Below are positions 42,247 through 55,488 of a stretch of 64,000 bases of DNA, piece after piece. The notes under the pieces were generated by a model, which was not told the DNA's origin, searched no databases, and was given only the letters and a program-made list of their open reading frames with translations. Source of the DNA: an uncultured Prevotella sp. (GTDB taxonomy: Bacteria; Bacteroidota; Bacteroidia; Bacteroidales; Bacteroidaceae); contig ONAE01000005.1 of assembly GCA_900315695.1 (NCBI GenBank), positions 1,468 to 65,467 on the forward strand. The letters are read 5' to 3'. The translations under genes and the position numbers were made by a program. Numbering within the stretch: position 1 is the first letter of the stretch; the number at the start of each line of letters is the position of its first letter.

Positions 42247-43154
42247 TTTTCCCTGTATTTCCCTTCTTCCTTGTCGTCCATCATGGAGAGATACGACTGA
42301 TAACGACTTTGGGCGATGTAGTGATTCTCGAGGGCCTGAAGTACGGCACAGCCGGGCTCATGGGTGTGGGTACAGTTGGAGAAACGGCAGTCTTGGGAGA
42401 ACTTGAAGATCTCGGGGAAGTAGCTGGTGAGCTCTTCGGGTTCGATGTCGAAGGTGCCGAAGCCTTTGATGCCCGGGGTGTCGATAAGCCACCCACCCCC
42501 CATCGGTATCATCTCGGAGAAGGTGGTGGTGTGCTGTCCGAGGTTATGGGCATCGGAGATCTCGGCGGTACGCAGGTTGGCATCGGGCACCAGCTGATTG
42601 ATAAGGGTGGACTTCCCCACCCCGCTGTTACCACTCAGGAGCGTGATCTTTCCCTCGAGCAAGGGGCGCAACGCCTCAACGCCCTCCCCTTTTGAGGCTG
42701 CAATCTGCCGACAGGTGTAACCGATCGACTCGTAGAGACGAACCATCATCTGCTGATAATGCAACATCTCCTGATCAAGGAGGTCGGTCTTGTTGAAGAT
42801 GAGCACCACCGGCACACGATAGGCTTCGGCGGAAGCCAGGAAACGGTCGATGAAGGTGGTGGAGGTCTGGGGATTGACGACTGTGACTACCAGGAAGGCC
42901 TGATCGACGTTGGCGGCCAGGATGTGGCTCTGTTTGGAGAGGTTGATGCTCTTGCGGATGATGTAGTTACGGCGGGGTTCGATATCGGTGATAAAATTAT
43001 CAGAAACCGTGACCCGGTCACCGACCGCGACGGGGTTGGTGGAGCGGATGCCCTTGAGGCGGAAGTTGCCCTTGATCTTACAATCAACCAGCTGGCCATC
43101 GTCCGTGAGGACGGTGTACCAGCTGCCTGTATTCTTAATGACTAACCCTTTCAA
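42243..43154 (-). CDS. rsgA: Ribosome small subunit-dependent GTPase A
   Basis: [21 protein letters not shown] and [14 protein letters not shown] motifs. Confidence 0.96.
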
Positions 43155-43155
43155 G

Positions 43156-43716
43156 TTATACCGTCATGATTTCCTTGTTCTTGGCCGCCATCAAGTCGTC
43201 GAGCTTCTTGATGTACTTGTCATGGAGTTTCTGAAGCTCCAGCTCAGCGTCCTTCTCATTATCCTCCGAAAGGCCGTCCTTGATGGCCTTCTTCAGCTTG
43301 TCCTTGACATCACCACGCACATTACGCACCTCGACCTTGGCCTTCTCGCAGATCTTGTTGCACTGTTTCACCAGATCCCTACGACGCTCCTCGGTGGGTA
43401 CCGGGATGTTCAGACGGATGATCTCACCATTGTTCTCAGGGGTGATGCCCACATCGGAATCCATGATGGCCTTCTCGATGTTACGGATCTCCTTACGATC
43501 CCAGGGCTTGATGGCGATGGTACGCGGATCGGGCACACTGACGTTGGCCACCTGATTCAGCGGCACCTTACTACCGTAGAGTTCTACACGGACACCATCG
43601 AGGATGGCAACATTGGCGCGGCCTGCACGCACACGATTCAGCTCCTCCTCAAGGAACATCGCTGCCATCTCCATGCGCTCCTCACTTTTCTTCAAAGTTT
43701 CTTTTACATCTATCAT
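43156..43716 (-). CDS. frr: Ribosome recycling factor
   Basis: [26 protein letters not shown] and VRNVR motifs. Start at MIDVK. Confidence 0.96.
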
Positions 43717-43838
43717 AATCTTACTAAGTTTTAGCGTTTTCTGATGACAAAAGTAGCGTTTTTCTGTCAATCCGCCAAATATTGCGTAATTTCGCCACCA
43801 GAACCATACCTATAATATAAATAAAGGTTATTACTGAC

Positions 43839-45944
43839 ATGTCGAAGATATCAACAACCATCTTCTTGTTGCTATGCGCTACGACGGTATATGCCCAGAC
43901 TGAAAACTGGCATACCATCGCAGACAGACACCATCTGGCGGCCTATCTGGTGGCCGGCCTGATGATCGTTTTGTTTGTGATGATCTTCTCAAACCGCCTG
44001 TTCTATTTCAGGGAGCAGGAAGTAAATATCCGCGCCAGGCAGCTGAACACCCAGTTGGCCCTGGTGCTGAACTCGAACAAGACCAAGGTATGGACCTATA
44101 GCCCCCAGAAGATCTTCACCCTCCTCTCAAGTGAGACCGCCACGAAGGAGGTGTATGCCCCCATCGACTTCTCACAATACTTCAACCACGAGGATTTCGA
44201 GGAGCTGCGACAAAGGCTCACGAGCATCCTTATCCAGGAGAAAGTGTCGGAGACCCTGCTCGTCAGGAGCCATGACAACCAGAAGACCTACGAGATCAAC
44301 ATCTCGGTGCTGAAACGAGACAAGAACCATGTTCCCAGCGTGCTGCTCGGTATCCAGCGCGACATCACAGAGCGCCAAGTCAGAAACGAGAAGCGGCATA
44401 ACCTGTCGCTGCAATACCAGACCGTGTTCGACACCTCGCTGGTGGACATGATCTACTACGACGGAGAGGGTTACCTGGTAGATCTGAACGAGAAGGCCTG
44501 TGAGACCTTTATGATCGCAGACCGCGAGCGCCTGCTGAAACAGCGCGTGCATATCCATGACATCCCCTCCTATCGCGAGATCAACATCGAGGAGCTGAAG
44601 GACAACGTCCGGCTCTCGTCGATCACCGACATCAGTCAGGTGAAGCAAGAAGACGAGCGCGTGCCAGACGTGAGACTTGGCGGCATCTGCTACTACGAGG
44701 CCATGCTCTGTCCGATACGCGACGAGAACGGCACGCTGCACGGGGTAATGGCTGCCGGCCGTAACATCACGGAGATGGTGGAGTCGCATCACAAACAGGA
44801 AGAAGAGGCCCAGCTCATCCAGAAGACCACCAAACAGATTCAGACCTATATCCAGAATATCAACTACACCCTGCGGACCAGTGGCGTGAGAATGATCACC
44901 TATCACCCGGCCCGTCATGAGCTGCGTATCTACAGCGACCTGGACAAGATACAGTACCGGCTCCCGCAGCTGCGGTGTGCCGCGCTCATCCACCCCTCGG
45001 AAAGAAGAAAGCTCAGAGGACTCTTCATACGTATGGACAAAGGAAAGGCCGGTAACATCTCAGAGGTGCTGCACACCATCTTCCACGACAAACAGGGCAG
45101 AGACGTGTATATGAACTTCAGCCTCATACCCATGACCGACAAGACGGGTAACGTGACCCACTATTTCGGACTGTGCCGTGATGAGACCGAGATGAAATAT
45201 ACCGAGATGCGCCTGCTGGAGGAGACCATGAAAGCCCAGGAGACCGAGGAGCTGAAGAACACCTTCCTGATGAACATGAGCTATGAGATCAGAACCCCGC
45301 TGAATGCCGTGCTCGGCTTCGCTGAGCTCTTCAACAGTCCACATGACGTGGAAGACGAGCCCGTGTTTGCCGAAGAGATCAAACGGAACACCGACGAGCT
45401 GCTGCAGCTGGTGAACGACATCCTCTTCATCTCCCGTCTGGATGCGAAGATGGTGGAGTTTACGAAAGAGAAGACAGACTTCGCCACCCTCTTCGACGGA
45501 TGGTGCTATCTGGGATGGAGTGCCCTGGGACCCAGCGTGAACGCCATCGTGGACAATCCCTACAACCACCTGGTGCTGAACATCGACGAACAGCATCTCG
45601 GACAGGCCATCCAGAAGATCTGCACCTGCTCTGCCGCCTACACCAAGGAAGGGATGGTGCGTGCGAAATACGAATACCACCATGGCGAACTGAGCATCGT
45701 GCTAGAAGACACAGGTATCGGCATCAGCAAGGAGGCCCTCCCCCACGTGTTTGACCGTTTTGCCCGGAATGACAGTGGGCTGCTCAGCAGTACGGGACTT
45801 GACTTGCCCATCGTGAAGGAACTGGTGGAACAGATGGGCGGACAGATAGAGATACAGTCGGAACTCGGAAAAGGTACCACCTGCTATGTCATGATCCCCT
45901 GTGAGATGATCAGCAGAGAGAAGAAAACAGAGATGATAAACTAA
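43839..45944 (+). CDS. Sensor histidine kinase homologue HK1 (H-box His to Tyr; degenerate ATPase; predicted pseudokinase)
   Basis: TM segment and PAS-like repeats; NMSYEIRTPL (TAT at 45282-45284); N box ICTCSAAYT; G2 box STGLDL. Confidence 0.88.
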   Translation: MSKISTTIFLLLCATTVYAQTENWHTIADRHHLAAYLVAGLMIVLFVMIFSNRLFYFREQEVNIRARQLNTQLALVLNSNKTKVWTYSPQKIFTLLSSETATKEVYAPIDFSQYFNHEDFEELRQRLTSILIQEKVSETLLVRSHDNQKTYEINISVLKRDKNHVPSVLLGIQRDITERQVRNEKRHNLSLQYQTVFDTSLVDMIYYDGEGYLVDLNEKACETFMIADRERLLKQRVHIHDIPSYREINIEELKDNVRLSSITDISQVKQEDERVPDVRLGGICYYEAMLCPIRDENGTLHGVMAAGRNITEMVESHHKQEEEAQLIQKTTKQIQTYIQNINYTLRTSGVRMITYHPARHELRIYSDLDKIQYRLPQLRCAALIHPSERRKLRGLFIRMDKGKAGNISEVLHTIFHDKQGRDVYMNFSLIPMTDKTGNVTHYFGLCRDETEMKYTEMRLLEETMKAQETEELKNTFLMNMSYEIRTPLNAVLGFAELFNSPHDVEDEPVFAEEIKRNTDELLQLVNDILFISRLDAKMVEFTKEKTDFATLFDGWCYLGWSALGPSVNAIVDNPYNHLVLNIDEQHLGQAIQKICTCSAAYTKEGMVRAKYEYHHGELSIVLEDTGIGISKEALPHVFDRFARNDSGLLSSTGLDLPIVKELVEQMGGQIEIQSELGKGTTCYVMIPCEMISREKKTEMIN

Positions 45945-45952
45945 GCAGCCCC

Positions 45953-47983
45953 ATGAACAGCATCAGCCTACATATTGTCCCCCTCCTGATAGGATCCTTC
46001 GACACCACCTCGGTGCTGATCGTGAGTGTGATGACCATCGCCTTTATCATCTCATGGGCGGCTAACCGCATCAGCATCCTGCGAATCCGCAAACGCGTGA
46101 GTGAGAGTAAGGAGATCTATGACATCATGCAGCACACCCTGGACCAGAACGACAACTACGTGCTGAGACTCGACCTGCGTGAACGCAAGGCCTACAACCT
46201 GCACGGACAGATGCTGCCAGAGTCAGGTATCGGCTATGAGAACAGTCTGCAGTATATTCATCCCGAGGACCAGCACATCTACCGCGACTTCCTGATCACG
46301 CTGAGCAAAGGGCAGGTCAGGACTGCAGAGTGCGTCTTCCGCTGGGATGCCAGTGGGGAGCATCATGCCGGGAACTGGCGCTATATGCACGACCAGGGCG
46401 TGGCGGAATACATAGAAGGACAGAAGCTGCCCACGAACATCTTCTGTACACTGACAGACCAGACCGAACGGATCATACAGGAACGTGAGGAACAGGAGCT
46501 GACCGACAAATACCGCAAGACCTTCGAGCAGTCGCTGGTGGGACTGGCCTTCTACGACAAGGACGGTTACCTGCTGACAGCCAACCAGAAGATGCGAGAG
46601 ATCCTGAAGTTCCAGTCGGAGGATGACCCCTATTACTACGAGAACGCCCTCTATGACATGCCCACCTTCAGGGATGTGCTGTCGAACCGCCATGTGGAAG
46701 AGCTCTACTTCTGTTCGAAGAGCGTGATCATCGACCGAGGCGTGAACTGCTATACCGAGTTGCGCGTACACCCCATCTACGATGAGAAAGGGGAGCTAGT
46801 GTATATCACCTTCTCCATCCGCGATGTGACCCAGGAGCGAGAACTCTACCTGCAGAGTAAGCAGAATGCCCTGGAGATGAGGAAGGCCAATGAGGAGATA
46901 CAGAACCTGGAGAACGAGATCCAGTATCTGATGGACAGCTGTGACATGCACTTCTGGCGGACAACCTTCGCCGACAAGACCGTGACCTTCTATCAAGGTC
47001 TGAAGACCGCCATGCCGCCCATGGGCTTCGATGCGCTGAGAGACCACTTCGTGCAGAGCACCTTCAAGGATGACCTGCTCGACCCGGAGAACAAGCTGCA
47101 GAAGCCCAAGACAGAGCTGACCCTCTGTCGCCCCTTCTTCGACGAAGGCGACGAGCTGCAGTGGAACATCATCGACAGTGTGCCCTATCACGATGCCGAA
47201 GGCAAGCAACTGGGGACCTATGGTATCATGCGCAATGTGACCCCGCTCATCAAGAAACAGGAACAGCTGAAGCAGGAGACGGAGCGCGCCCAGAGCTCCG
47301 GCCGCATGAAGAGTATGTTCATGGCCAATATGACCCACGAGATCCGTACCCCACTGAATGCCATCGTCGGTTTCAGTGACGTGCTGTCGATGATGGAGAC
47401 ACCAGAGGAGAAACAGGAGATCGTCAGGGTGATCATGAACAACTGCGACATGCTGCTCCGCCTGATCAACGACATCCTGGTCCTGTCGGCCATCGACGGA
47501 GGCAGCAGCATCCAGATCCATGCCGTAGAGACCAACTTCGCCAAGGACTTCGAGGATATCTGCACCTCGCTGGCGCAGCGCATCCAGAATCCCAATGTGG
47601 CGTTTATGAAGGAGAACCCCTACACCACCCTCATCGCCACCCTCGACAAGGAACGTATCCAGCAGGTGATCACGAACTTCGTGACCAATGCCGTAAAATA
47701 TACCAACGAAGGCCATATCAAGGTGGGCTATCAGCAGAAGGACAACGGACTGTATTTCTATTGCGAAGACACAGGATCAGGTATCCAGCAGGAGGATCAG
47801 GACAAGATCTTCGAGCGATTCGTGAAACTGAACGACTTCGTACAGGGTACCGGTCTGGGCCTGAACATCTCGAAAGCCATCATAGAGACCCTGCATGGTA
47901 AGATCGGCGTCAACTCAGAAGGCGTAGGCCATGGCTCCACCTTCTGGTTCTGGATCCCATGTCAGATAAAAAGTGAAGCATGA
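45953..47983 (+). CDS. Sensor histidine kinase HK2 (intact)
   Basis: NMTHEIRTPLN, TNFVTNAVKYT, DTGSGI, FERF and GTGLGL motifs. Confidence 0.93.
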   Translation: MNSISLHIVPLLIGSFDTTSVLIVSVMTIAFIISWAANRISILRIRKRVSESKEIYDIMQHTLDQNDNYVLRLDLRERKAYNLHGQMLPESGIGYENSLQYIHPEDQHIYRDFLITLSKGQVRTAECVFRWDASGEHHAGNWRYMHDQGVAEYIEGQKLPTNIFCTLTDQTERIIQEREEQELTDKYRKTFEQSLVGLAFYDKDGYLLTANQKMREILKFQSEDDPYYYENALYDMPTFRDVLSNRHVEELYFCSKSVIIDRGVNCYTELRVHPIYDEKGELVYITFSIRDVTQERELYLQSKQNALEMRKANEEIQNLENEIQYLMDSCDMHFWRTTFADKTVTFYQGLKTAMPPMGFDALRDHFVQSTFKDDLLDPENKLQKPKTELTLCRPFFDEGDELQWNIIDSVPYHDAEGKQLGTYGIMRNVTPLIKKQEQLKQETERAQSSGRMKSMFMANMTHEIRTPLNAIVGFSDVLSMMETPEEKQEIVRVIMNNCDMLLRLINDILVLSAIDGGSSIQIHAVETNFAKDFEDICTSLAQRIQNPNVAFMKENPYTTLIATLDKERIQQVITNFVTNAVKYTNEGHIKVGYQQKDNGLYFYCEDTGSGIQQEDQDKIFERFVKLNDFVQGTGLGLNISKAIIETLHGKIGVNSEGVGHGSTFWFWIPCQIKSEA

Positions 47984-50766
47984 ACACCTATTATAAATAT
48001 ATAAGGTATATCGTCATCGCCGTGGCCGGTCTGTGGTCGTGGCAGACACTCACAGCCCAGGAGGAGACAGCGAAAACCTATACCACGGAACATCCCCTGA
48101 TCTATGAGGATGCGTGGGACCTGTGGCCCTACGTCTTCCTGAATGAGAACGGAGAGCCAGACGGTTATAACATCGACCTGCTGAAGCTGATCTTCAAGGA
48201 ACTCGACATCCCCTATGTGATCAAGCTGAAGCCCACCTTAGAGGCCCAGGCAGACCTGACGAACGGGAAGAGCGACCTGATGCTGCGCATGGATGCCGAG
48301 TACTCACGGGTGAACAGCCAGTACAGCAAGAACATCGTGCAGCTCTTCACCCACAGTATCGTGGTGCCCATCGGCCAGAACTTCCATATCAGTCAGGTGA
48401 AAGACCTGAAGAATTACCGTGTGATCGTGCATGGCGGCAGTTTCAGTCATCACTACCTCATGAAACACGGCTTGGCCAAGGAGATCACCGCCTATGACGA
48501 CATGAAGGGCGCCATCCAGGAACTCATCACCCAGGGCAACGGGATCATCCTCTGGAACACGATGTCGCTGAAATGGCTCATGCGCAAGTATCACTCCGAC
48601 AAGCTGGCACTGGTGCCCATCGACATGCCCTATGGCGAATATAAGTTCATGTCGCCCGACCACCAGCTGCTGGAACGTATCGACAGTGCCTACGTGGCCC
48701 TGAGGGCTGCAGAGAAGCTGCAACCCATCCAGAACAAATGGTTCTATCCCGACCGCCAGGACACCGGTATCCCCGTGTGGGTGTGGTATCTGGCAGCCTC
48801 CTTAGCCGTTATCGCCCTGTTCCTGTTGGTTTACTATATCGTGTACCGGAGCAGGGAGCGGCGTCTGACGCAGGCTGTCAGAAAGAGCAATGCCCGCCTG
48901 TCGCTGATCCTGAAGACCAGTCATGTGAGCCTGTGGACCTACCATATCCTGACCAAGCAGTTCACGTGGATGGACGAACAGGGCAAGGCCCAACAGACCA
49001 CCACCCTCGATGCCTTTGTGTATCGTTACCGACCCAAGGATGTGCAGCGCCTGCAACAGGCCCTCGATGCGATTGCCCAGAAGAAGGAGGACCATATGAA
49101 CCTGAACATCCAGGTGTTTGATGATGAGGGCGAGGGGGAGGCCCATAACTACACGCTGGCCCTGAGCGTGCTGCGTCATGACAAGAACGGATATCCCACC
49201 ACCATCCTCTGTACCCGCAGTGATGTGACCAAAGAGCTGTTGCGACAGATCAAGGTGAAAGACACGCTGTTGCGCTATCAGGCCATCTTCAACTCTGTGA
49301 TGGTGGATATGGTGGCCTATGATGCACAAGGCTATATCGTGGACATCAACCAGAAAGCCTTGTCAGCCTTAAAGGTGGACTTGCAGGTGATCAAAGCGCA
49401 AAAGATCTCCATCAAAGACGTGGTAGGTGATCCCGACCTCGACGTGGAGCACTTCGAACACATGTACGTGACCCAGATCTACAAAGGCGAGGACGACCGT
49501 CCGCTGTACAAGATGCTGAACTGCAACAAGCTCTACTACGAGCTGCAGCTCACCCCGGTGCGCGATGCAGAAGGGAAGTTGCTCGCCATCTTCGGTACAG
49601 GGCGCAATGTGACAGAGATAGCAGCGTCGTACCACCATCTGTTGCAAGATATCCAGGAGTTGCAGAAGGCCAACGACGAGGTGTCGGACTATATCCAGAA
49701 CATCGACTACGTGTTGAAGGTGGGCGGTATCAAGATGGTGAAATACAACCTGACCACCCATACGCTCACCCTCTTCAGCGAGGCCAACAATGCCGGTCTC
49801 TCGCTGACGCAGACCAGGATGCTGAACCTGATCGACCCGAAGTGGAAGAAGACCACGGAGCGCACCCTGAACAATATGGACAACAAGAGCGCCACCAGTG
49901 TGCAGCTCGATGTGAAGACCACCATCAGGCGACAAGGCGAGCCCCTGCATTTGCAGTTCCACTTCATCCCCTTCTACAACGACAAGGGAGACGTGAAAGA
50001 ATACTTCGGCATGTGCCGTGACATCAGTGAGCTGAAAGCCATCGAGGAGAAGCTGGCCCAGGAGACCCTGCGTGCCCAGGAGGTGGAGGTGGTGAAGAAC
50101 GCGTTCCTCCATAACATGAGCTTTGAGATCCGTACCCCACTGACTACGGTCGTAGGATTCGCAGAACTCTTCCAGATGGATCACAGTGCCGAAGACGAGG
50201 CTGTGTTTATCAGGGAGATCAAGTCGAACTCGGCCCAGTTGCTGAAGCTCATCAACGACATCCTCTTCCTCTCACGCCTGGATGCGGAGATGATCACCAT
50301 CAACCCACAACCGACAGACTTCACGACAAGTATCACCGTACGCTGTGAGAGTACGTGGGCCAACCTCAAGAAGCCCGGGGTGGACTATATCGTGAAGACC
50401 CCCTTCAAGAAGCTGGTGCTCGACATCGACTTCAATCATATCGGGATGGTGGTGGAGAAGATACTCAACAATGCCGTGCAGCATACCACCCAAGGCACCG
50501 TGCTGGTGCATTACGACTATATGGGCGACCAGCTCGCGGTATCCATCGAAGATACGGGACGCGGTATCCCCGAAGACCAGATCAAGCATATCTTCGACCG
50601 GTTCGTGACTGACGCCTCAAGCAATGGAGCCGGTCTGGGACTGAGTATCTGTCAGGAACTGATCCAGCATATGGGTGGAAAGATCAACCTGTCGTCCACA
50701 GTCGGACGAGGCACCAACGTGTGGTTCACCATCCCCTGTAAGCTGATAGAGATGGAACGTAACTAA
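47980..50766 (+). CDS. Sensor kinase homologue HK3 with periplasmic solute-binding domain (H-box His to Phe)
   Basis: SBP family 3-like N-terminus (WPYVFLNENGEPDGYNIDL) and TM; NMSFEIRTPL (TTT at 50122-50124); retains NNA, DTGRG and GAGLGL. Confidence 0.9.
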   Translation: MNTYYKYIRYIVIAVAGLWSWQTLTAQEETAKTYTTEHPLIYEDAWDLWPYVFLNENGEPDGYNIDLLKLIFKELDIPYVIKLKPTLEAQADLTNGKSDLMLRMDAEYSRVNSQYSKNIVQLFTHSIVVPIGQNFHISQVKDLKNYRVIVHGGSFSHHYLMKHGLAKEITAYDDMKGAIQELITQGNGIILWNTMSLKWLMRKYHSDKLALVPIDMPYGEYKFMSPDHQLLERIDSAYVALRAAEKLQPIQNKWFYPDRQDTGIPVWVWYLAASLAVIALFLLVYYIVYRSRERRLTQAVRKSNARLSLILKTSHVSLWTYHILTKQFTWMDEQGKAQQTTTLDAFVYRYRPKDVQRLQQALDAIAQKKEDHMNLNIQVFDDEGEGEAHNYTLALSVLRHDKNGYPTTILCTRSDVTKELLRQIKVKDTLLRYQAIFNSVMVDMVAYDAQGYIVDINQKALSALKVDLQVIKAQKISIKDVVGDPDLDVEHFEHMYVTQIYKGEDDRPLYKMLNCNKLYYELQLTPVRDAEGKLLAIFGTGRNVTEIAASYHHLLQDIQELQKANDEVSDYIQNIDYVLKVGGIKMVKYNLTTHTLTLFSEANNAGLSLTQTRMLNLIDPKWKKTTERTLNNMDNKSATSVQLDVKTTIRRQGEPLHLQFHFIPFYNDKGDVKEYFGMCRDISELKAIEEKLAQETLRAQEVEVVKNAFLHNMSFEIRTPLTTVVGFAELFQMDHSAEDEAVFIREIKSNSAQLLKLINDILFLSRLDAEMITINPQPTDFTTSITVRCESTWANLKKPGVDYIVKTPFKKLVLDIDFNHIGMVVEKILNNAVQHTTQGTVLVHYDYMGDQLAVSIEDTGRGIPEDQIKHIFDRFVTDASSNGAGLGLSICQELIQHMGGKINLSSTVGRGTNVWFTIPCKLIEMERN

Positions 50767-50778
50767 CCTGCAAAAGAG

Positions 50779-53559
50779 ATGCGAATGATGACTAAAAAGA
50801 TATTGCTCCTCACCTGTCTGCTGTTCTGCGGTCTGTGGCCTGCAACAGCACAATGGGCTCGCGACTATACCGAAGACCACCCACTCATCATCGTGAGCGA
50901 CTGGGAGTTCCCACCCTATGAGTTCCGGAATGACAATGGTAATCCTGACGGCTATAATGTGGAGGTGCTCGACCTCATCCTCGACAAGCTGGAGATTCCC
51001 CACAAGTTTGTGATGCAGGAGTGGTTTCAGTGTACCAAGACCTTTGAGAACCGTGAGGCAGACCTGATCCACGCCCTGACCAGCTACTATAAGAAGTCCC
51101 CGTATGTGATGACGCAGAACATGATCACCTACTATCCCCTGAAAGTGGTGAGACGAAAAAGTCAGAAGGTGATCCATCGTGTCAGTCAGTTCACCGACAA
51201 AGACACGCTGATGGTGAAGGAGAACGACTACGCGGCTCTGCGCATCCAGGCCATCGAGGATAAGCCCTTCCAGACAGAATACCGCTCTCCCAAAGAGGCT
51301 TTGGCAGCCATCCGAAATGGTCATCGCGCCTATTACATCTGGGGAGAGATCCCCCTGAAGATGAAGATCAAGGAGTATGGTCTCGACAGTCTGAAGCTCG
51401 ACGATATCGATATCATGCCGGCAGAGTTACGGATCATCGGTTATGACAGGGAGCTGATCGACGCCATCGATGATGCGTATGCCCGACTGGAGCAGTCAGG
51501 AGAGCTGCAACCCATCCACGACAAGTGGTTCAACCCCGAGCGCGTGCATAACGACTCCTCACCCATCGCCCTCTTTGCCCTGATCGGTTCGGTGATCGCC
51601 ATCATCATCGCCTTCCTGCTGAGCCGGCTGATCCATGCCAAAGTGAAGGCCACTGCCAGACGCTCAGAGGATATCAACGGGATGATGAAACAGGCCCTGC
51701 AGATGGGCAACTTCTACGTGTTCGAATACGACATCAAGACTGGTCATATAAGTAACACCTATGGCAAGCTGATTCCTGAGGAGGAACAGACGCTGGAGGC
51801 CTTTGTCAAACGCCTGGATCCTGCCATGCAACAGGATTTCATGCGCCATACGCAGGTGCTGATGAATGGGGAGGAACAGGACCGGTACTTTAACCGCCGC
51901 TATAACATCGGTACGGAAGAAGCACCAGACTGGCGTCATCTGGAAGGGACAGCCATCGTGGAGCAGGAGAACCACAAGCCCCGCTATCTCGTCTATGCGG
52001 TGAAGGACATCACCCAGGATGTGGAGTCGGAGCGCATCAACCAGGAGATCGGCAACAAATACGCCCGTATGTTTGAGACCAACCTCATCGCCATGTCGTT
52101 CTATGACAAGGAGGGCTGGTTTGTGGATGCGAACGAGAAAATGCGTGAACTCTGTGGCTTCGATGACAAAGGGTATGAGTTCTTCAGAAGCACGAACATG
52201 TTTGATACGAGCATGCTGGTGAACATCTATGAGAAGGGTTCACGGGAGCCCCTGCACATCTGCAGTCACATGTACTACCCGGAGGTGGATATCGACAGGT
52301 ATATCGAGCTCAGGATCCGTCCTATCCTCGATGAACAGGGGGAGCTGTTCTTCTATGTGATCACCTCACGAGACATCACCGCCGAGCGCACGATGTATCT
52401 TGAGAAGATGCACCATGACATCGAGATCCGCAAGACCTATGACGCCATCAACATCTATGAGCAGCAGCTCACCTATCTGCTGGAGAACAGTGAGATGTTC
52501 GTCTGGCGCTCTAACCTGCAGGAGCGTACCCTCTCCTATTCCCGTTCGTTGCGCAAGCCAGAGTTCCAGGAGACCATCGATGAGTATATCCAACGTATCT
52601 TCCCGGGTGAGGAGCAGGAGACCCTGAAAGCCTTCAGGGATCCGGAAACCATGAGCAAGGCCTTTAACGTGATTCATCACTACCGCTATAGTCACTACAA
52701 CAAGAAGCCTTCGTGGCATGCAGTGAGTGGCATCCCCACCTTCGACAAGAATGGTCATCAGATCGGTTACTTCGGTGTGTCGCGTGACATCACCAAACTT
52801 ATCGTGGCCCAACAGAAGCTGAAGAAAGAGACCGCCCGTGCCGAGGACTCCGGTAAGATGAAGAGTGCGTTCCTGGCCAATATGACCCATGAGATCCGTA
52901 CCCCGCTGAATGCCATCGTGGGCTTCAGCGACCTGTTGCCGATGGTGGATACCCACGAGGAGCGCATGGAGTTTATCCGTATCATCCGTAACAACTGTGA
53001 TATGCTGATGCGTCTCATCAACGATATCCTGGAGGCCTCGAACATGGGACAGGCCCTGGCCATCAAACCAGAGAAGGTGGATTTCGCCACCGTCTTCGAT
53101 GATATCTGTCAGACACTGGCACAGCGTGTGCAGGAGCCTGGCGTGGCGTTTATCAAAGACAATCCCTATGAACACTATGTGACCACCCTTGACAAGGGAC
53201 GCGTGCAGCAGATCCTCACGAACTTCACGACCAATGCCGTGAAATATACCCATGAGGGGCATATCAAGGTGGGGTATCGCTATGAACGCAGGATGACGCT
53301 CGATGAACAGGGGGAGGCAGACGGGCTGCTGTTCTATTGTGAGGATACCGGTGCCGGTATCCCCAAAGAGAAACAGGCCAGCGTCTTTGAGCGTTTCGTG
53401 AAGCTGAATGACTTTGTGCAGGGTACGGGATTGGGCCTGAGCATCTGTCAGGCCATCACCGACCGTTGTAACGGGCATATCGGAGTCACCTCCGAGGGCG
53501 AAGGCCATGGATCCACCTTCTGGATGTGGATTCCTTGTGAGAGGCAACCTCTCGAGTAA
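50779..53559 (+). CDS. Sensor histidine kinase HK4 with periplasmic solute-binding domain (intact)
   Basis: FPPYEFRNDNGNPDGYNVEV and TM; NMTHEIRTPLN, TNFTTNAVKYT, DTGAGI and GTGLGL motifs. Confidence 0.93.
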   Translation: MRMMTKKILLLTCLLFCGLWPATAQWARDYTEDHPLIIVSDWEFPPYEFRNDNGNPDGYNVEVLDLILDKLEIPHKFVMQEWFQCTKTFENREADLIHALTSYYKKSPYVMTQNMITYYPLKVVRRKSQKVIHRVSQFTDKDTLMVKENDYAALRIQAIEDKPFQTEYRSPKEALAAIRNGHRAYYIWGEIPLKMKIKEYGLDSLKLDDIDIMPAELRIIGYDRELIDAIDDAYARLEQSGELQPIHDKWFNPERVHNDSSPIALFALIGSVIAIIIAFLLSRLIHAKVKATARRSEDINGMMKQALQMGNFYVFEYDIKTGHISNTYGKLIPEEEQTLEAFVKRLDPAMQQDFMRHTQVLMNGEEQDRYFNRRYNIGTEEAPDWRHLEGTAIVEQENHKPRYLVYAVKDITQDVESERINQEIGNKYARMFETNLIAMSFYDKEGWFVDANEKMRELCGFDDKGYEFFRSTNMFDTSMLVNIYEKGSREPLHICSHMYYPEVDIDRYIELRIRPILDEQGELFFYVITSRDITAERTMYLEKMHHDIEIRKTYDAINIYEQQLTYLLENSEMFVWRSNLQERTLSYSRSLRKPEFQETIDEYIQRIFPGEEQETLKAFRDPETMSKAFNVIHHYRYSHYNKKPSWHAVSGIPTFDKNGHQIGYFGVSRDITKLIVAQQKLKKETARAEDSGKMKSAFLANMTHEIRTPLNAIVGFSDLLPMVDTHEERMEFIRIIRNNCDMLMRLINDILEASNMGQALAIKPEKVDFATVFDDICQTLAQRVQEPGVAFIKDNPYEHYVTTLDKGRVQQILTNFTTNAVKYTHEGHIKVGYRYERRMTLDEQGEADGLLFYCEDTGAGIPKEKQASVFERFVKLNDFVQGTGLGLSICQAITDRCNGHIGVTSEGEGHGSTFWMWIPCERQPLE

Positions 53560-53579
53560 ACTTTCTTTTTCTTTCGTTA

Positions 53580-54130
53580 TCGAAAGAGTTCTTCATTTCT
53601 TTCATCACTGAAAGAAACGAAGCAAAGAAAGGTGCAAAAACGTCCTGAGCTCAGAGGCCGAAACCCTATTTTTTCAAATCACTCAATGAACTCGCTTCGC
53701 TCAAACAGCATTTCGTATTTCGTTGCTCAGATTGCTATTCGCAATCCGAGACTCAATATCGATTCAAAAAAATAGAATTTCTCTAAAGACCTCTTCGTGC
53801 GGAATGTTTTTGATTTTTGGCTGCGCATTGGCTATTCGCCTCGCTAAACCGAGCCAAGCGAGCAAGCTCGTAACCGAACTGTGCTTCATGTTTTTTCGAA
53901 TGAATTCTCAAAAACATTCCGCACGAGGAGGTATTTATAGGATGTACTATTATCGGAATCTTCTTCGATTCTTGGATCGCGGAAGCGAGACAAGCAAATC
54001 GACATGAGAAGCTGTCTGAGCGAAGCGAGTTCTTCGAATGATTACGATAATATTACAGCCGACCTCTGAGCCCAGGACGTTTTTGAGAATTTGTTCGAAA
54101 TGATCAGGCAGAAAGGAAATGAAGAGAAAA
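53580..54130. repeat. Large nested imperfect palindromic element
   Basis: Paired arms 53589-53603/54110-54125, 53635-53657/54063-54085, 53679-53709/54011-54041 and 53789-53813/53908-53932. Confidence 0.85.
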
Positions 54131-54138
54131 CCCTCCTC

Positions 54139-55488
54139 TTAAAAGAGGAAAGTCTTCTCAAGCCAATAGCAGAAGATGCCTGCCAGGTAGCCGGTAAACG
54201 CTACCCAGGTGATCTTCTTCATATACCAGCCGAAGGTAATCTTCTCAAGACCCATGACCACCACACCGGCAGCAGAGCCGATGATCAGCATTGATCCCCC
54301 CACACCGGCACAGTATGCCAACAGCTGCCAGAAGATGCCATCGACAGCCATATCGCCGGCAGCAGCCACTGGATACATACCCATGCAACCAGCCACCAGA
54401 GGCACATTATCCACGATGGAGGAGAGGACACCGATGATGCCGGTGACGAGGTAGTGGTTGCCCTCGAAGACGGTATCGAGCGTCTGTCCCAACAGGGTGA
54501 GCGCACCGATGGTCTCCAGACAGGCCACAGCCATCAGGATGCCCAGGAAGAAGAGGATGGTGTCCATGTCGATGCGAGACAGCATCTTTGACACGCGTTT
54601 CTGGGGACTGTTCTTCGCGTCTTCGCCTTCCTGGTGGATACGGCAATAGAAGATCTCCGTGACCGTCCAGAGCACACCGAGCACGAGCAGGATGCCTACA
54701 AATGGCGGCAGATGGGTGATGGTCTTGAAGATAGGCACGAAGATGAGACCACCGACACCGAGGAAGAAAATGATCTTACGCTGGGCAGGCGTCAGAGGGT
54801 CGTCGTCATCGACAACAACCGTCTCCTTCACAGGCTGAAGGGCACCCTTCAGCGAGAGGGAGAGGATATAGGCGGGGATGACCATCGACACCACTGAGGG
54901 GATGAATATCTCCATGATGACACCGGCAGCGGTGATAACACCCTTGTTCCAGAGCATGATGGTGGTGACATCGCCGATGGGCGAGAAGGCACCACCGGAG
55001 TTGGCTGCAATCACTACAAGAGCGGCATAGATAATACGGTCCTCCTTGTCGTTGACAAGCTTACGCAGGATCATGATCATCACAATCGACGTGGTGAGGT
55101 TGTCGAGGATGGCCGAGAGGATGAACGTCATGCAGGCGATACGCCACAGCAGGGAGCGCTTCGACGTGGTCTGCAGCGTGTCACGCACAAAGTTGAAGCC
55201 ACCGTTCTGATCAACGAGCTCCACGATTGTCATGGCACCCATGAGGAAGAACAGGGTGGTGGCAGTGGAACCGAGGTGATGCTCGATCGTGGTGCTGACC
55301 ACCGAGGCTTTCATGGCATCAATGGCATCAGGCAGATATGACTCAGGCGCAATCATGAAGAGGGTCCATGTGACCACAAACATCAGCAGGGCAATAGCGG
55401 CCTTGTTGATCTTGGTAACGCTTTCGATGGCTATGCAGAAATAGCCGATACAGAAAACGATGATGATAGCAATTGACAATAATGACAT
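54139..55488 (-). CDS. nhaD: NhaD-family Na+/H+ antiporter
   Basis: INKAA, LFFLMGAMTIVE, SAILDNLTT, ANSGGAFSPIGDVTT, SSIVDNVP and IIGSAAGV motifs. Confidence 0.88.
   Translation of the reverse strand: MSLLSIAIIIVFCIGYFCIAIESVTKINKAAIALLMFVVTWTLFMIAPESYLPDAIDAMKASVVSTTIEHHLGSTATTLFFLMGAMTIVELVDQNGGFNFVRDTLQTTSKRSLLWRIACMTFILSAILDNLTTSIVMIMILRKLVNDKEDRIIYAALVVIAANSGGAFSPIGDVTTIMLWNKGVITAAGVIMEIFIPSVVSMVIPAYILSLSLKGALQPVKETVVVDDDDPLTPAQRKIIFFLGVGGLIFVPIFKTITHLPPFVGILLVLGVLWTVTEIFYCRIHQEGEDAKNSPQKRVSKMLSRIDMDTILFFLGILMAVACLETIGALTLLGQTLDTVFEGNHYLVTGIIGVLSSIVDNVPLVAGCMGMYPVAAAGDMAVDGIFWQLLAYCAGVGGSMLIIGSAAGVVVMGLEKITFGWYMKKITWVAFTGYLAGIFCYWLEKTFLF

Follow-up and report, generated by a model that had tools for sequence, protein, structure and literature searches.

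Related systems

In bacteria, the prevailing view is that sensor kinases work as homodimers and that pseudo-histidine kinases are rare exceptions. We report here on an operon of four genes encoding sensor histidine kinase homologues (HK1 to HK4), found in a 64,000-nucleotide stretch of DNA from an uncultured Prevotella sp. (assembly GCA_900315695.1, contig ONAE01000005.1, positions 1,468 to 65,467), hereafter the window. Two copies lacking the phospho-accepting His, HK1 and HK3 (type A), alternate in this operon with two canonical ones, HK2 and HK4 (type B). We propose, with a probability of about 55%, that each A protein is a regulatory partner of the B protein encoded just downstream, in a mixed complex where A would set the kinase/phosphatase balance of B, and only the His of B would feed a response regulator.

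DivL of Caulobacter crescentus is a pseudo-kinase with a Tyr in place of the phospho-His, which senses DivK~P and controls CckA, and is devoid of kinase and phosphatase activity (PMC4211667). Its site tolerates Y, F and H, and the Tyr was called unique to DivL in the same paper. DivL (PDB 4q20) is, like HK1, a multi-PAS HisKA/HATPase_c protein, with NVSYELRTPL at the site compared to NMSYEIRTPL in HK1, and its Tyr550 aligns with Phe715 of HK3. Its N, G1, F and G2 boxes are kept, as in HK3, whereas HK1 has lost ATP-site residues. However, DivL is alphaproteobacterial, i.e. from another phylum, and is not an orthologue of HK1 or HK3; its gene is not adjacent to that of its partner kinase CckA; and it has no periplasmic SBP domain. 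It is also a single essential cell-cycle protein, whereas type A is a large paralogous family in which Tyr, instead of being unique, is the majority state (at least 47 clusters at 50% identity). Among PDB entries, DivL is one of many equally good matches, with an E value of 1.7e-24 compared to 2e-27 for generic kinases. Because of its alphaproteobacterial origin, its gene unlinked to that of its partner and the lack of orthology, the resemblance is judged to be convergent: A would work like DivL, but is not DivL.

Two adjacent genes encoding sensor-kinase-like proteins in one locus are also found in group A Streptococcus, where FasB and FasC are proposed to act only as a heterodimer, one subunit giving the kinase domain and the other the acceptor His (PMC12675982). 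There, however, both proteins keep their His, the locus encodes the regulator FasA, while none is found near the window operon, the kinases belong to another subfamily and another phylum, and no A-B-A-B array is present. In Pseudomonas aeruginosa, GacS and RetS (and LadS) provide a case of a kinase-like protein modulating another one by hetero-association through the dimerization and histidine phosphotransfer (DHp) domain, and the RetS kinase core (6dk8) is among the sequence matches of HK3. RetS and GacS are unlinked hybrid kinases with receiver domains, in contrast to the present ones, and RetS keeps its His. Both also form homodimers, according to work cited in PMC12675982.

With respect to domain order, HK3 and HK4 resemble the Venus-flytrap kinases of the BvgS/EvgS type, with a periplasmic SBP_bac_3 domain, a transmembrane (TM) helix, PAS, and HisKA/HATPase_c. 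BvgS and EvgS differ in that they are homodimeric and bear, in each chain, two flytrap domains together with receiver and HPt domains. Scores with the NCBIfam EvgS model were ∼75–100 bits, far under the cut-off of 1995. In plants (subfamily-2 ethylene receptors) and in animals (pairs of the HER3/HER2 type), catalytically degenerate receptors are likewise known to signal only when complexed with competent paralogues, but this is an analogy only, as they are eukaryotic, unrelated by descent and not encoded in operons. The hybrid two-component systems (HTCS) of Bacteroides, in which a single chain joins the kinase to a receiver and an AraC-type DNA-binding domain, differ as well: HK1 to HK4 have neither Response_reg nor HTH_AraC. 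An AraC-type gene comes after HK4 in 20 of 47 related loci, but it is separate, its product bearing a cupin domain rather than a receiver. We found no account, in the full-text literature, of HisKA partners without a His in Bacteroidota or Prevotella; this literature was covered to a limited extent, so that novelty is not proven.

Four genes of two types

HK1 (type A1, 43839–45944, 701 amino acids), HK2 (type B1, 45953–47983, 676), HK3 (type A2, 47980–50766, 928) and HK4 (type B2, 50779–53559, 926) were delimited and typed from the open reading frame (ORF) list, Pfam and motif alignment, and all lie on the + strand. HK1 and HK2 are 8 bp apart, HK2 and HK3 overlap by 4 bp (ATGA, the HK2 stop and HK3 start), and HK3 and HK4 are 12 bp apart, which is exactly the spacing given in a first-pass annotation made by a model from the sequence. 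Membership in the HisKA-class sensor histidine kinase family (PF00512 and PF02518) was tested with the Pfam gathering thresholds: all four proteins scored 54.6 to 65.1 bits for HisKA (cut-off 26.9) and 71 to 94 bits for HATPase_c (cut-off 26.4). Each of them has two PAS domains, and the Pfam scan detected no receiver domain in any of the four. Among NCBIfam models, no equivalog was found, the best ones (TorS, PnpS, LuxQ and ArcB) being all far under their cut-offs.

The H-boxes are NMSYEIRTPL in HK1 (45273–45302, + strand; Tyr482, codon TAT at 45282–45284), NMSFEIRTPL in HK3 (50113–50142, + strand; Phe715, codon TTT at 50122–50124), and NMTHEIRTPL in both HK2 (His462) and HK4 (His704). The ORF translations therefore bear out the A-B-A-B alternation and the cores SYEIRTPL, THEIRTPL, SFEIRTPL and THEIRTPL that had been read at first pass. 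As the phospho-His is missing, HK1 and HK3 are homologues of the family, not catalytic members. The two types are distinct along the whole cytoplasmic part. In the DHp domain, HK1 and HK3 are 60% identical, HK2 and HK4 64%, and identities across types are 37 to 45%. The same typing, HK1 with HK3 and HK2 with HK4, holds in every cytoplasmic domain, and thus extends the likeness formerly noted in the PAS regions, where the strings quoted are indeed present.

The two A copies are not equivalent, judging from their ATP sites. In HisKA kinases, the N-box and G2 residues hold Mg-ATP and form the ATP lid. HK2 has N-box NAVKYT and G2 GTGLGL in addition to its His, and N-box and G2 are intact in HK4. 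HK1 kept G1, but its N-box Asn is replaced by Cys597 and its second G2 Gly by Asp655 (GLDL for GLGL), so that HK1 most likely binds no nucleotide, and reads as a full pseudokinase. In HK3, the N, G1, F and G2 boxes are all kept despite Phe715, and nucleotide binding is probable. The ATP site is thus predicted to be dead in HK1 and intact in HK3. These A proteins are currently annotated as ordinary histidine kinases, which is misleading even if no heterodimer forms.

Outside the cytoplasmic core, HK3 and HK4 begin with a signal peptide, followed by the periplasmic SBP_bac_3 domain, TM, PAS, PAS, HisKA and HATPase_c; their two SBP_bac_3 domains share 28% identity. HK1 has a signal/TM1, a loop of ∼12 residues and TM2, then the same PAS, PAS, HisKA, HATPase_c series; it has no periplasmic domain, and retains ahead of its second TM helix an NW..DR remnant of the end of an SBP domain. 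HK2 has a short membrane anchor and no periplasmic domain.

Conservation of the altered site

A scan of genome contigs with HK1 gave 7 loci, all from close rumen metagenome-assembled genomes (MAGs), and the breadth of the survey came from a metagenome scan and from a search among representative proteins. Overall, the order HK1-HK2-HK3-HK4 was seen in about 90 rumen Prevotella loci, and more distant modules were also collected. This order was shared by four other genome loci and by all metagenome loci of sufficient length (80 loci, HK1 identity of 46 to 83%; metagenome contigs can be chimeric), with intergenic gaps mostly of −8 to +40 bp.

The B copies were invariant, as His, Thr at +4, N-box NA..KYT and G2 GLGL were present in 64/64 HK2 and 51/51 HK4 orthologues. 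At the phospho-His site of A copies, we found Tyr (72/82) or His (10/82) in HK1, and Phe (30), Tyr (25) or His (8) in the 63 HK3 loci, with His-bearing copies under-sampled because the metagenome scan was partly seeded with NMS[YF]EIRT. In a sample of closest homologues exempt from this bias, the site was Tyr in 119 of 120 HK1 relatives, and F (71), Y (47) or H (2) in HK3 relatives. His retention is therefore the minority case for both genes. The commonest HK1/HK3 combinations were Y/F (21 loci) and Y/Y (16 loci). The codons used are TAY, TTY and CAY, meaning that each state is one step away from the next. The ATP sites behaved differently in the two genes: in HK1, the G2 Gly was replaced in 82/82 orthologues and the N-box Asn kept in 19/82, and every His-bearing HK1 had a degenerate ATP site, while in HK3 the N-box Asn was kept in 52/56, and the ATP site was nearly always intact.

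To reach beyond close orthologues, 1.84 billion representative proteins were searched with a profile, and the best 150 matches were sorted into clusters at 50% identity. Among these matches, 78 clusters were of type A, with Y (47), H (14), F (8), Q (5), and I, R or A (one each) at the site, i.e. 63/78 without His, and 25 clusters out of 25 of type B were fully canonical. Both ATP motifs were intact in 36 of the A clusters and both lost in 29, the Asn and/or the G2 Gly being lost in 42. Thr at +4 was kept in 63/78 and replaced by Q, I, V, R, K, M or G in 13 to 15. A profile built on 17 distant A-type proteins returned mostly unrelated hybrid kinases, and 8 useful matches. The family has named members among Prevotella sp. 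MAGs, and one in culture, Xylanibacter oryzae DSM 17970, whose A protein is WP_036875916.1, with the B gene directly downstream. One member came from a Hadza human-gut sample. Conservation of the substitution among orthologues, with Y in 72/82 HK1, Y or F in 55/63 HK3 and no His in the 63 clusters above, is one more likeness to DivL. The locus is part of a large family, both conserved and expressed, of a genus that is dominant in gut and rumen; in this family, a His-less paralogue lies immediately ahead of a canonical kinase, with which it co-evolves.

In all readable neighbourhoods of distant members, that is nine independent contexts, a gene of type A was followed by one of type B. The A residue was Gln in L091, Tyr in L093/L094, Phe in L095 (X. 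oryzae DSM 17970), His in L096, Tyr with a degenerate ATP site in L097, Arg in L098 and Phe in L099, where the SBP domain is absent from both partners. L090 is a further module, in which, as in L098, the B-like gene is cut by the contig end, and L100 is a second four-gene operon, with an A2 and a B2 both devoid of SBP domain. The A-to-B gap ranged from −11 to 8 bp, with the exception of L097 (179 bp), and a His-bearing B came next to A wherever the downstream sequence could be read, in these few distant modules. Since distant A genes occur in simple A-B pairs, the A-B unit is ancestral and the four-gene operon its tandem duplicate. This supports, together with the conserved four-gene order, the duplicated two-gene module already suspected at first pass, and makes it an old one, common in Prevotellaceae.

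Selection acting on the A copies was estimated by the ratio of nonsynonymous to synonymous substitution rates (dN/dS, NG86) among orthologous operons. Whole-gene values were 0.14 to 0.23 for all four genes. By domain, DHp was the most constrained in both types (0.03 in HK1 and HK3, 0.02 to 0.03 in HK2 and HK4), and even the presumably dead catalytic and ATP-binding (CA) domain of HK1 gave 0.09; as dS is near saturation, these values are safe only for comparing genes with one another. With values of 0.08 to 0.23 overall, the A copies are therefore clearly under strong purifying selection, like the B copies, and are not drifting. As the substitutions at the site are also kept in orthologues, they are due neither to chance nor to random decay, in keeping with the first-pass annotation.

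The same annotation had the loss of His tracking a lineage, which is not cleanly so: Y and F dominate the A copies, but His is found in 10/82 HK1 and 8/63 HK3. The history of the site was followed by Fitch parsimony along a tree of 47 operons built from HK2 plus HK4; this tree, like all others here, was obtained by neighbour-joining on corrected p-distances. Basal operon lineages are Y/Y, and the root state given by parsimony is Tyr in HK1 as well as in HK3, with at least 4 changes needed for each. His arises at four separate places of the tree in HK1, and within one clade in HK3. With a Tyr at the root and His scattered, His appears to have been regained several times. Reconstructed in this way, the A site toggles among Y, F and H, while flanking residues stay fixed.

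Evidence for coupling of adjacent A and B copies

We asked whether the four proteins evolve together, using pairwise protein distances in 38 non-redundant operons. Partial correlations between two genes, controlling for the other two, were computed with 95% bootstrap intervals. High values were obtained for HK1-HK2 (0.72, 0.64 to 0.81) and HK3-HK4 (0.70, 0.62 to 0.79). The four other pairs gave 0.25 (HK1-HK3, 0.00 to 0.43), 0.15 (HK1-HK4, −0.08 to 0.34), 0.07 (HK2-HK3, −0.17 to 0.35) and −0.03 (HK2-HK4, −0.22 to 0.14). The pair-specific co-variation persisted when the cytoplasmic part alone, or DHp plus CA alone, was used. Plain adjacency is not the cause, since no co-variation is seen between HK2 and HK3, although these genes overlap and even form a single ORF in one clade. 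Robinson-Foulds distances between gene trees were of 26 to 34, alike for all pairs, compared to a within-gene noise of 16 to 24, and topologies were largely congruent. This similarity means that the signal is mainly a co-variation of rates within the A-B pair, and it rules out two separate genealogies, or block recombination, as its main cause. Short of proving contact, the co-variation supports a functional coupling of adjacent A and B. In addition, the periplasmic SBP domain was present in both partners or in neither, and no mixed module was seen among those that could be scored.

In nine loci of one operon clade (L059, L061, L063, L064, L067–L070 and L085), corresponding to six protein clusters (P0122, P0204, P0231, P0240, P0241 and P0389), HK2 and HK3 are fused into one ORF of ∼1585–1595 amino acids, the whole of HK2 being joined in frame to residue 2 to 8 of HK3. 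Such a fusion is topologically allowed, since a TM helix can be provided by the signal peptide of HK3. It is read here as tolerated, and perhaps hints that all four proteins sit together. A lone HK1-HK2 fusion of 1355 amino acids (P0514) was also seen, on one contig from a strain ∼97% identical to the window; it results from a ∼70-bp deletion of the HK1 stop codon and the first 16 HK2 codons, and may be an assembly artefact.

Proposed mechanism and alternatives

In the model that we favour, A and the downstream B would be made from one transcript and joined in a mixed complex, most simply through their DHp, PAS and TM regions. The A protein would bring a sensory input of its own, via the periplasmic SBP_bac_3 domain and/or PAS, and set the kinase/phosphatase balance of B. 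It would be non-phosphorylatable, or optionally phosphorylatable, the phospho-accepting His being dispensable in A, and the phosphate would pass only from the His of B to a response regulator encoded elsewhere. HK1, having neither His nor ATP site, could only modulate or block HK2, and would be its regulatory or dominant-negative subunit. HK3, given its intact ATP-binding domain, could also phosphorylate the HK4 His in trans. The physical association, the direction of control, the trans-phosphorylation, and the identities of regulator and ligand are the parts of the model that we infer. A bolder form of it, which is possible but should be taken as tentative, is that Prevotellaceae have a large family of obligate A/B heteromeric sensor kinases, each subunit with its own ligand-binding domain. 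An A that retains its ATP site, as do HK3 and roughly half of the family members, would then trans-phosphorylate B, so that the output needs both inputs, an A without one would be a ligand-controlled brake, and the four-gene operon would be a two-module logic device feeding one regulator. If A-B pairs are heteromers, they offer bacteria a general route to combine signals at the receptor level, and the family provides a natural series, in which His is lost or regained, the ATP site is retained or not, and some genes are fused. The presence of a cultured species, X. oryzae DSM 17970, in the family makes the idea directly testable.

Several observations weigh against the mixed-complex model. Three deep topological conflicts between gene trees are strongly supported, and rate co-variation could reflect shared selection or block recombination instead of contact. 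The recurrent fusion joins B1 to A2, which are not the proposed partners. The dS values behind the by-domain ratios are ∼1.1, close to saturation, and the seeding of the metagenome scan leaves His-bearing A copies under-represented. No response regulator was found among the ten other small or medium ORFs scanned in the window. Finally, some A orthologues are fully canonical (e.g. L096_A, and the HK3 of L037, L052, L054 and L071–74). Because of these, and of the reappearance of His, type A is not, on the alignments, an obligate pseudokinase across the family.

The main alternative, a live one although rather unlikely in our view, dispenses with the mixed dimer: A would be a DivL-like sensor of the phosphorylated regulator, or a dedicated phosphatase, sharing the regulator of B. 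In detail, B would act as the kinase in response to one signal, and A would serve a second signal as phosphatase or sink. The face of DHp where the regulator docks, xEIRTPL (Glu at +1, Thr at +4), is indeed conserved equally in A and B, with a DHp dN/dS of 0.03, and the phosphatase activity of HisKA proteins requires the E/DxxT/N motif, not the His (EnvZ, NarX, CrdS). The Thr at +4 is kept in the majority of A-type clusters (63/78), but its replacement in 13–15 of them, and in HK1 of L071–74 and L079 and in L100, means that phosphatase chemistry is not universal in A. The parallel with DivL cuts both ways, as Y550F and Y550H variants still bind DivK~P, and the A site tolerates exactly Y, F and H in orthologues, but DivL itself is without phosphatase activity (PMC4211667). 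Moreover, sharing a regulator does not by itself account for the fact that the two partners have lost or kept the periplasmic domain together, nor for the pair-specific rate co-variation across cytoplasmic domains.

Pairing could also follow type, HK1 with HK3 as complementary half-kinases and the B copies together, HK3, through its intact ATP domain, phosphorylating in trans an HK1 with a His but a dead ATP site, in the manner proposed for FasB/FasC. The DHp domains of HK1 and HK3 are closer to each other (60%) than to those of the B copies (37–45%), and in 8 loci an HK1 with His and degenerate N-box/G2 coexists with an HK3 with F or Y and an intact ATP site. Also, a His in both A copies at once was seen in 0 of 53 loci; however, this absence is not significant (∼0.8 expected), and with lineages that are not independent and the bias of the NMS[YF]EIRT scan, we reject any meaning in it. 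In the window and most loci (Y/F 21, Y/Y 16), neither A copy has a His to be phosphorylated, the partial correlation is only 0.25 (0.00–0.43) for HK1-HK3 and −0.03 for HK2-HK4, and the ancestral form is a module with a single A, all of which makes such pairing very improbable. Hardly credible is the last possibility, in which the A copies are ordinary kinases with another acceptor, for instance by Tyr autophosphorylation, or recently inactivated genes drifting to pseudogenes. Tyr is the commonest replacement, and DivL was once reported to autophosphorylate on Tyr, but the residue can also be Phe, Gln, Ile, Arg or Ala, and HK1 has lost the ATP-site residues needed for autokinase activity. As for decay, the ORFs are full-length, the A genes are transcribed, and dN/dS values of 0.08–0.23 across divergences down to 46% identity largely refute it.

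Expression and neighbouring genes

The operon stretch is present in bovine gut metagenomes, and its closest genomes are uncultured rumen Prevotella MAGs. In four rumen metatranscriptomes, all four genes were covered by contigs, at a low and even depth (∼5–20), compared to 100–500 for the neighbouring frr gene. Single RNA contigs span the HK1/HK2, HK2/HK3 and HK3/HK4 junctions, and the depth drops after HK4. The even depth and the junction-spanning contigs fit one weakly expressed, co-transcribed operon, bearing in mind that these are assembled contigs in which DNA carry-over is possible. An AT-rich leader at 43790–43838 (+ strand) is a probable promoter region, on the weak basis that metatranscriptome contigs start at 43816–43828. 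A scan for sigma-70-type promoters, which does not cover those of Bacteroidota, gave 7 sites for 8.7 expected. A weak terminator-like hairpin (53569–53588, + strand) lies 10 bp past the HK4 stop codon, where the RNA contig depth falls. In MAG RUG12981 (L001, 98.9% identical), a 7-bp deletion at the equivalent of window positions 47077–47083 shifts the reading frame of the canonical HK2, which is thereby split in two. The deletion is either due to misassembly or genuine, in which case the broken copy of this strain would be B1 rather than A1; it was not seen in the four RNA runs examined.

Regulatory genes border related modules. In 20/47 rumen loci (e.g. L046, L038 and L043), the highly conserved AraC-family gene (cupin AraC_binding plus HTH), in the same orientation as the last B, comes directly after it or overlaps with it; this gene has coordinates 15614–16483 in L088 and 15509–16378 in L095. 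Its product, devoid of receiver domain, is 78–87% identical among rumen loci and 67% identical to that of X. oryzae. It is absent from the window and from its closest relatives. In X. oryzae and L096, the gene is followed by rhamnose genes (FGGY kinase, RhaA, RhaT). Just upstream of A-B in the same two loci, and on the same strand, are an OmpR-type response regulator and a classical 470-amino-acid kinase (L095, 7257–9368; L096, 5696–7844), with a GNAT acetyltransferase between this pair and the A-B pair in X. oryzae. This regulator is a candidate output, and no such regulator/kinase pair is found near the window operon. In L093/L094 (15579–17507), two polyamine-pathway genes, agmatine deiminase (PAD_porph) and CN_hydrolase, come after the A-B module in the same orientation, which may hint at the type of ligand bound by the amino-acid-type SBP domains.

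The coding strand of the operon has a strong positive AT skew (0.13–0.22 over window positions 44001–52000, compared to ∼0 elsewhere in the window), and long antisense shadow ORFs accompany it, e.g. at 52366–53547 (393 amino acids), which we take as non-coding. No Rfam match was obtained within 43000–55000. The 580-bp spacer between HK4 and a convergent transporter gene consists of a nested imperfect palindrome of ∼535 bp (53590–54125), likewise without Rfam match, made of four nested arm pairs (I5, I4, I2 and I1) that are 72–92% complementary. In many related loci, the AraC-type gene takes the place of this palindromic spacer.

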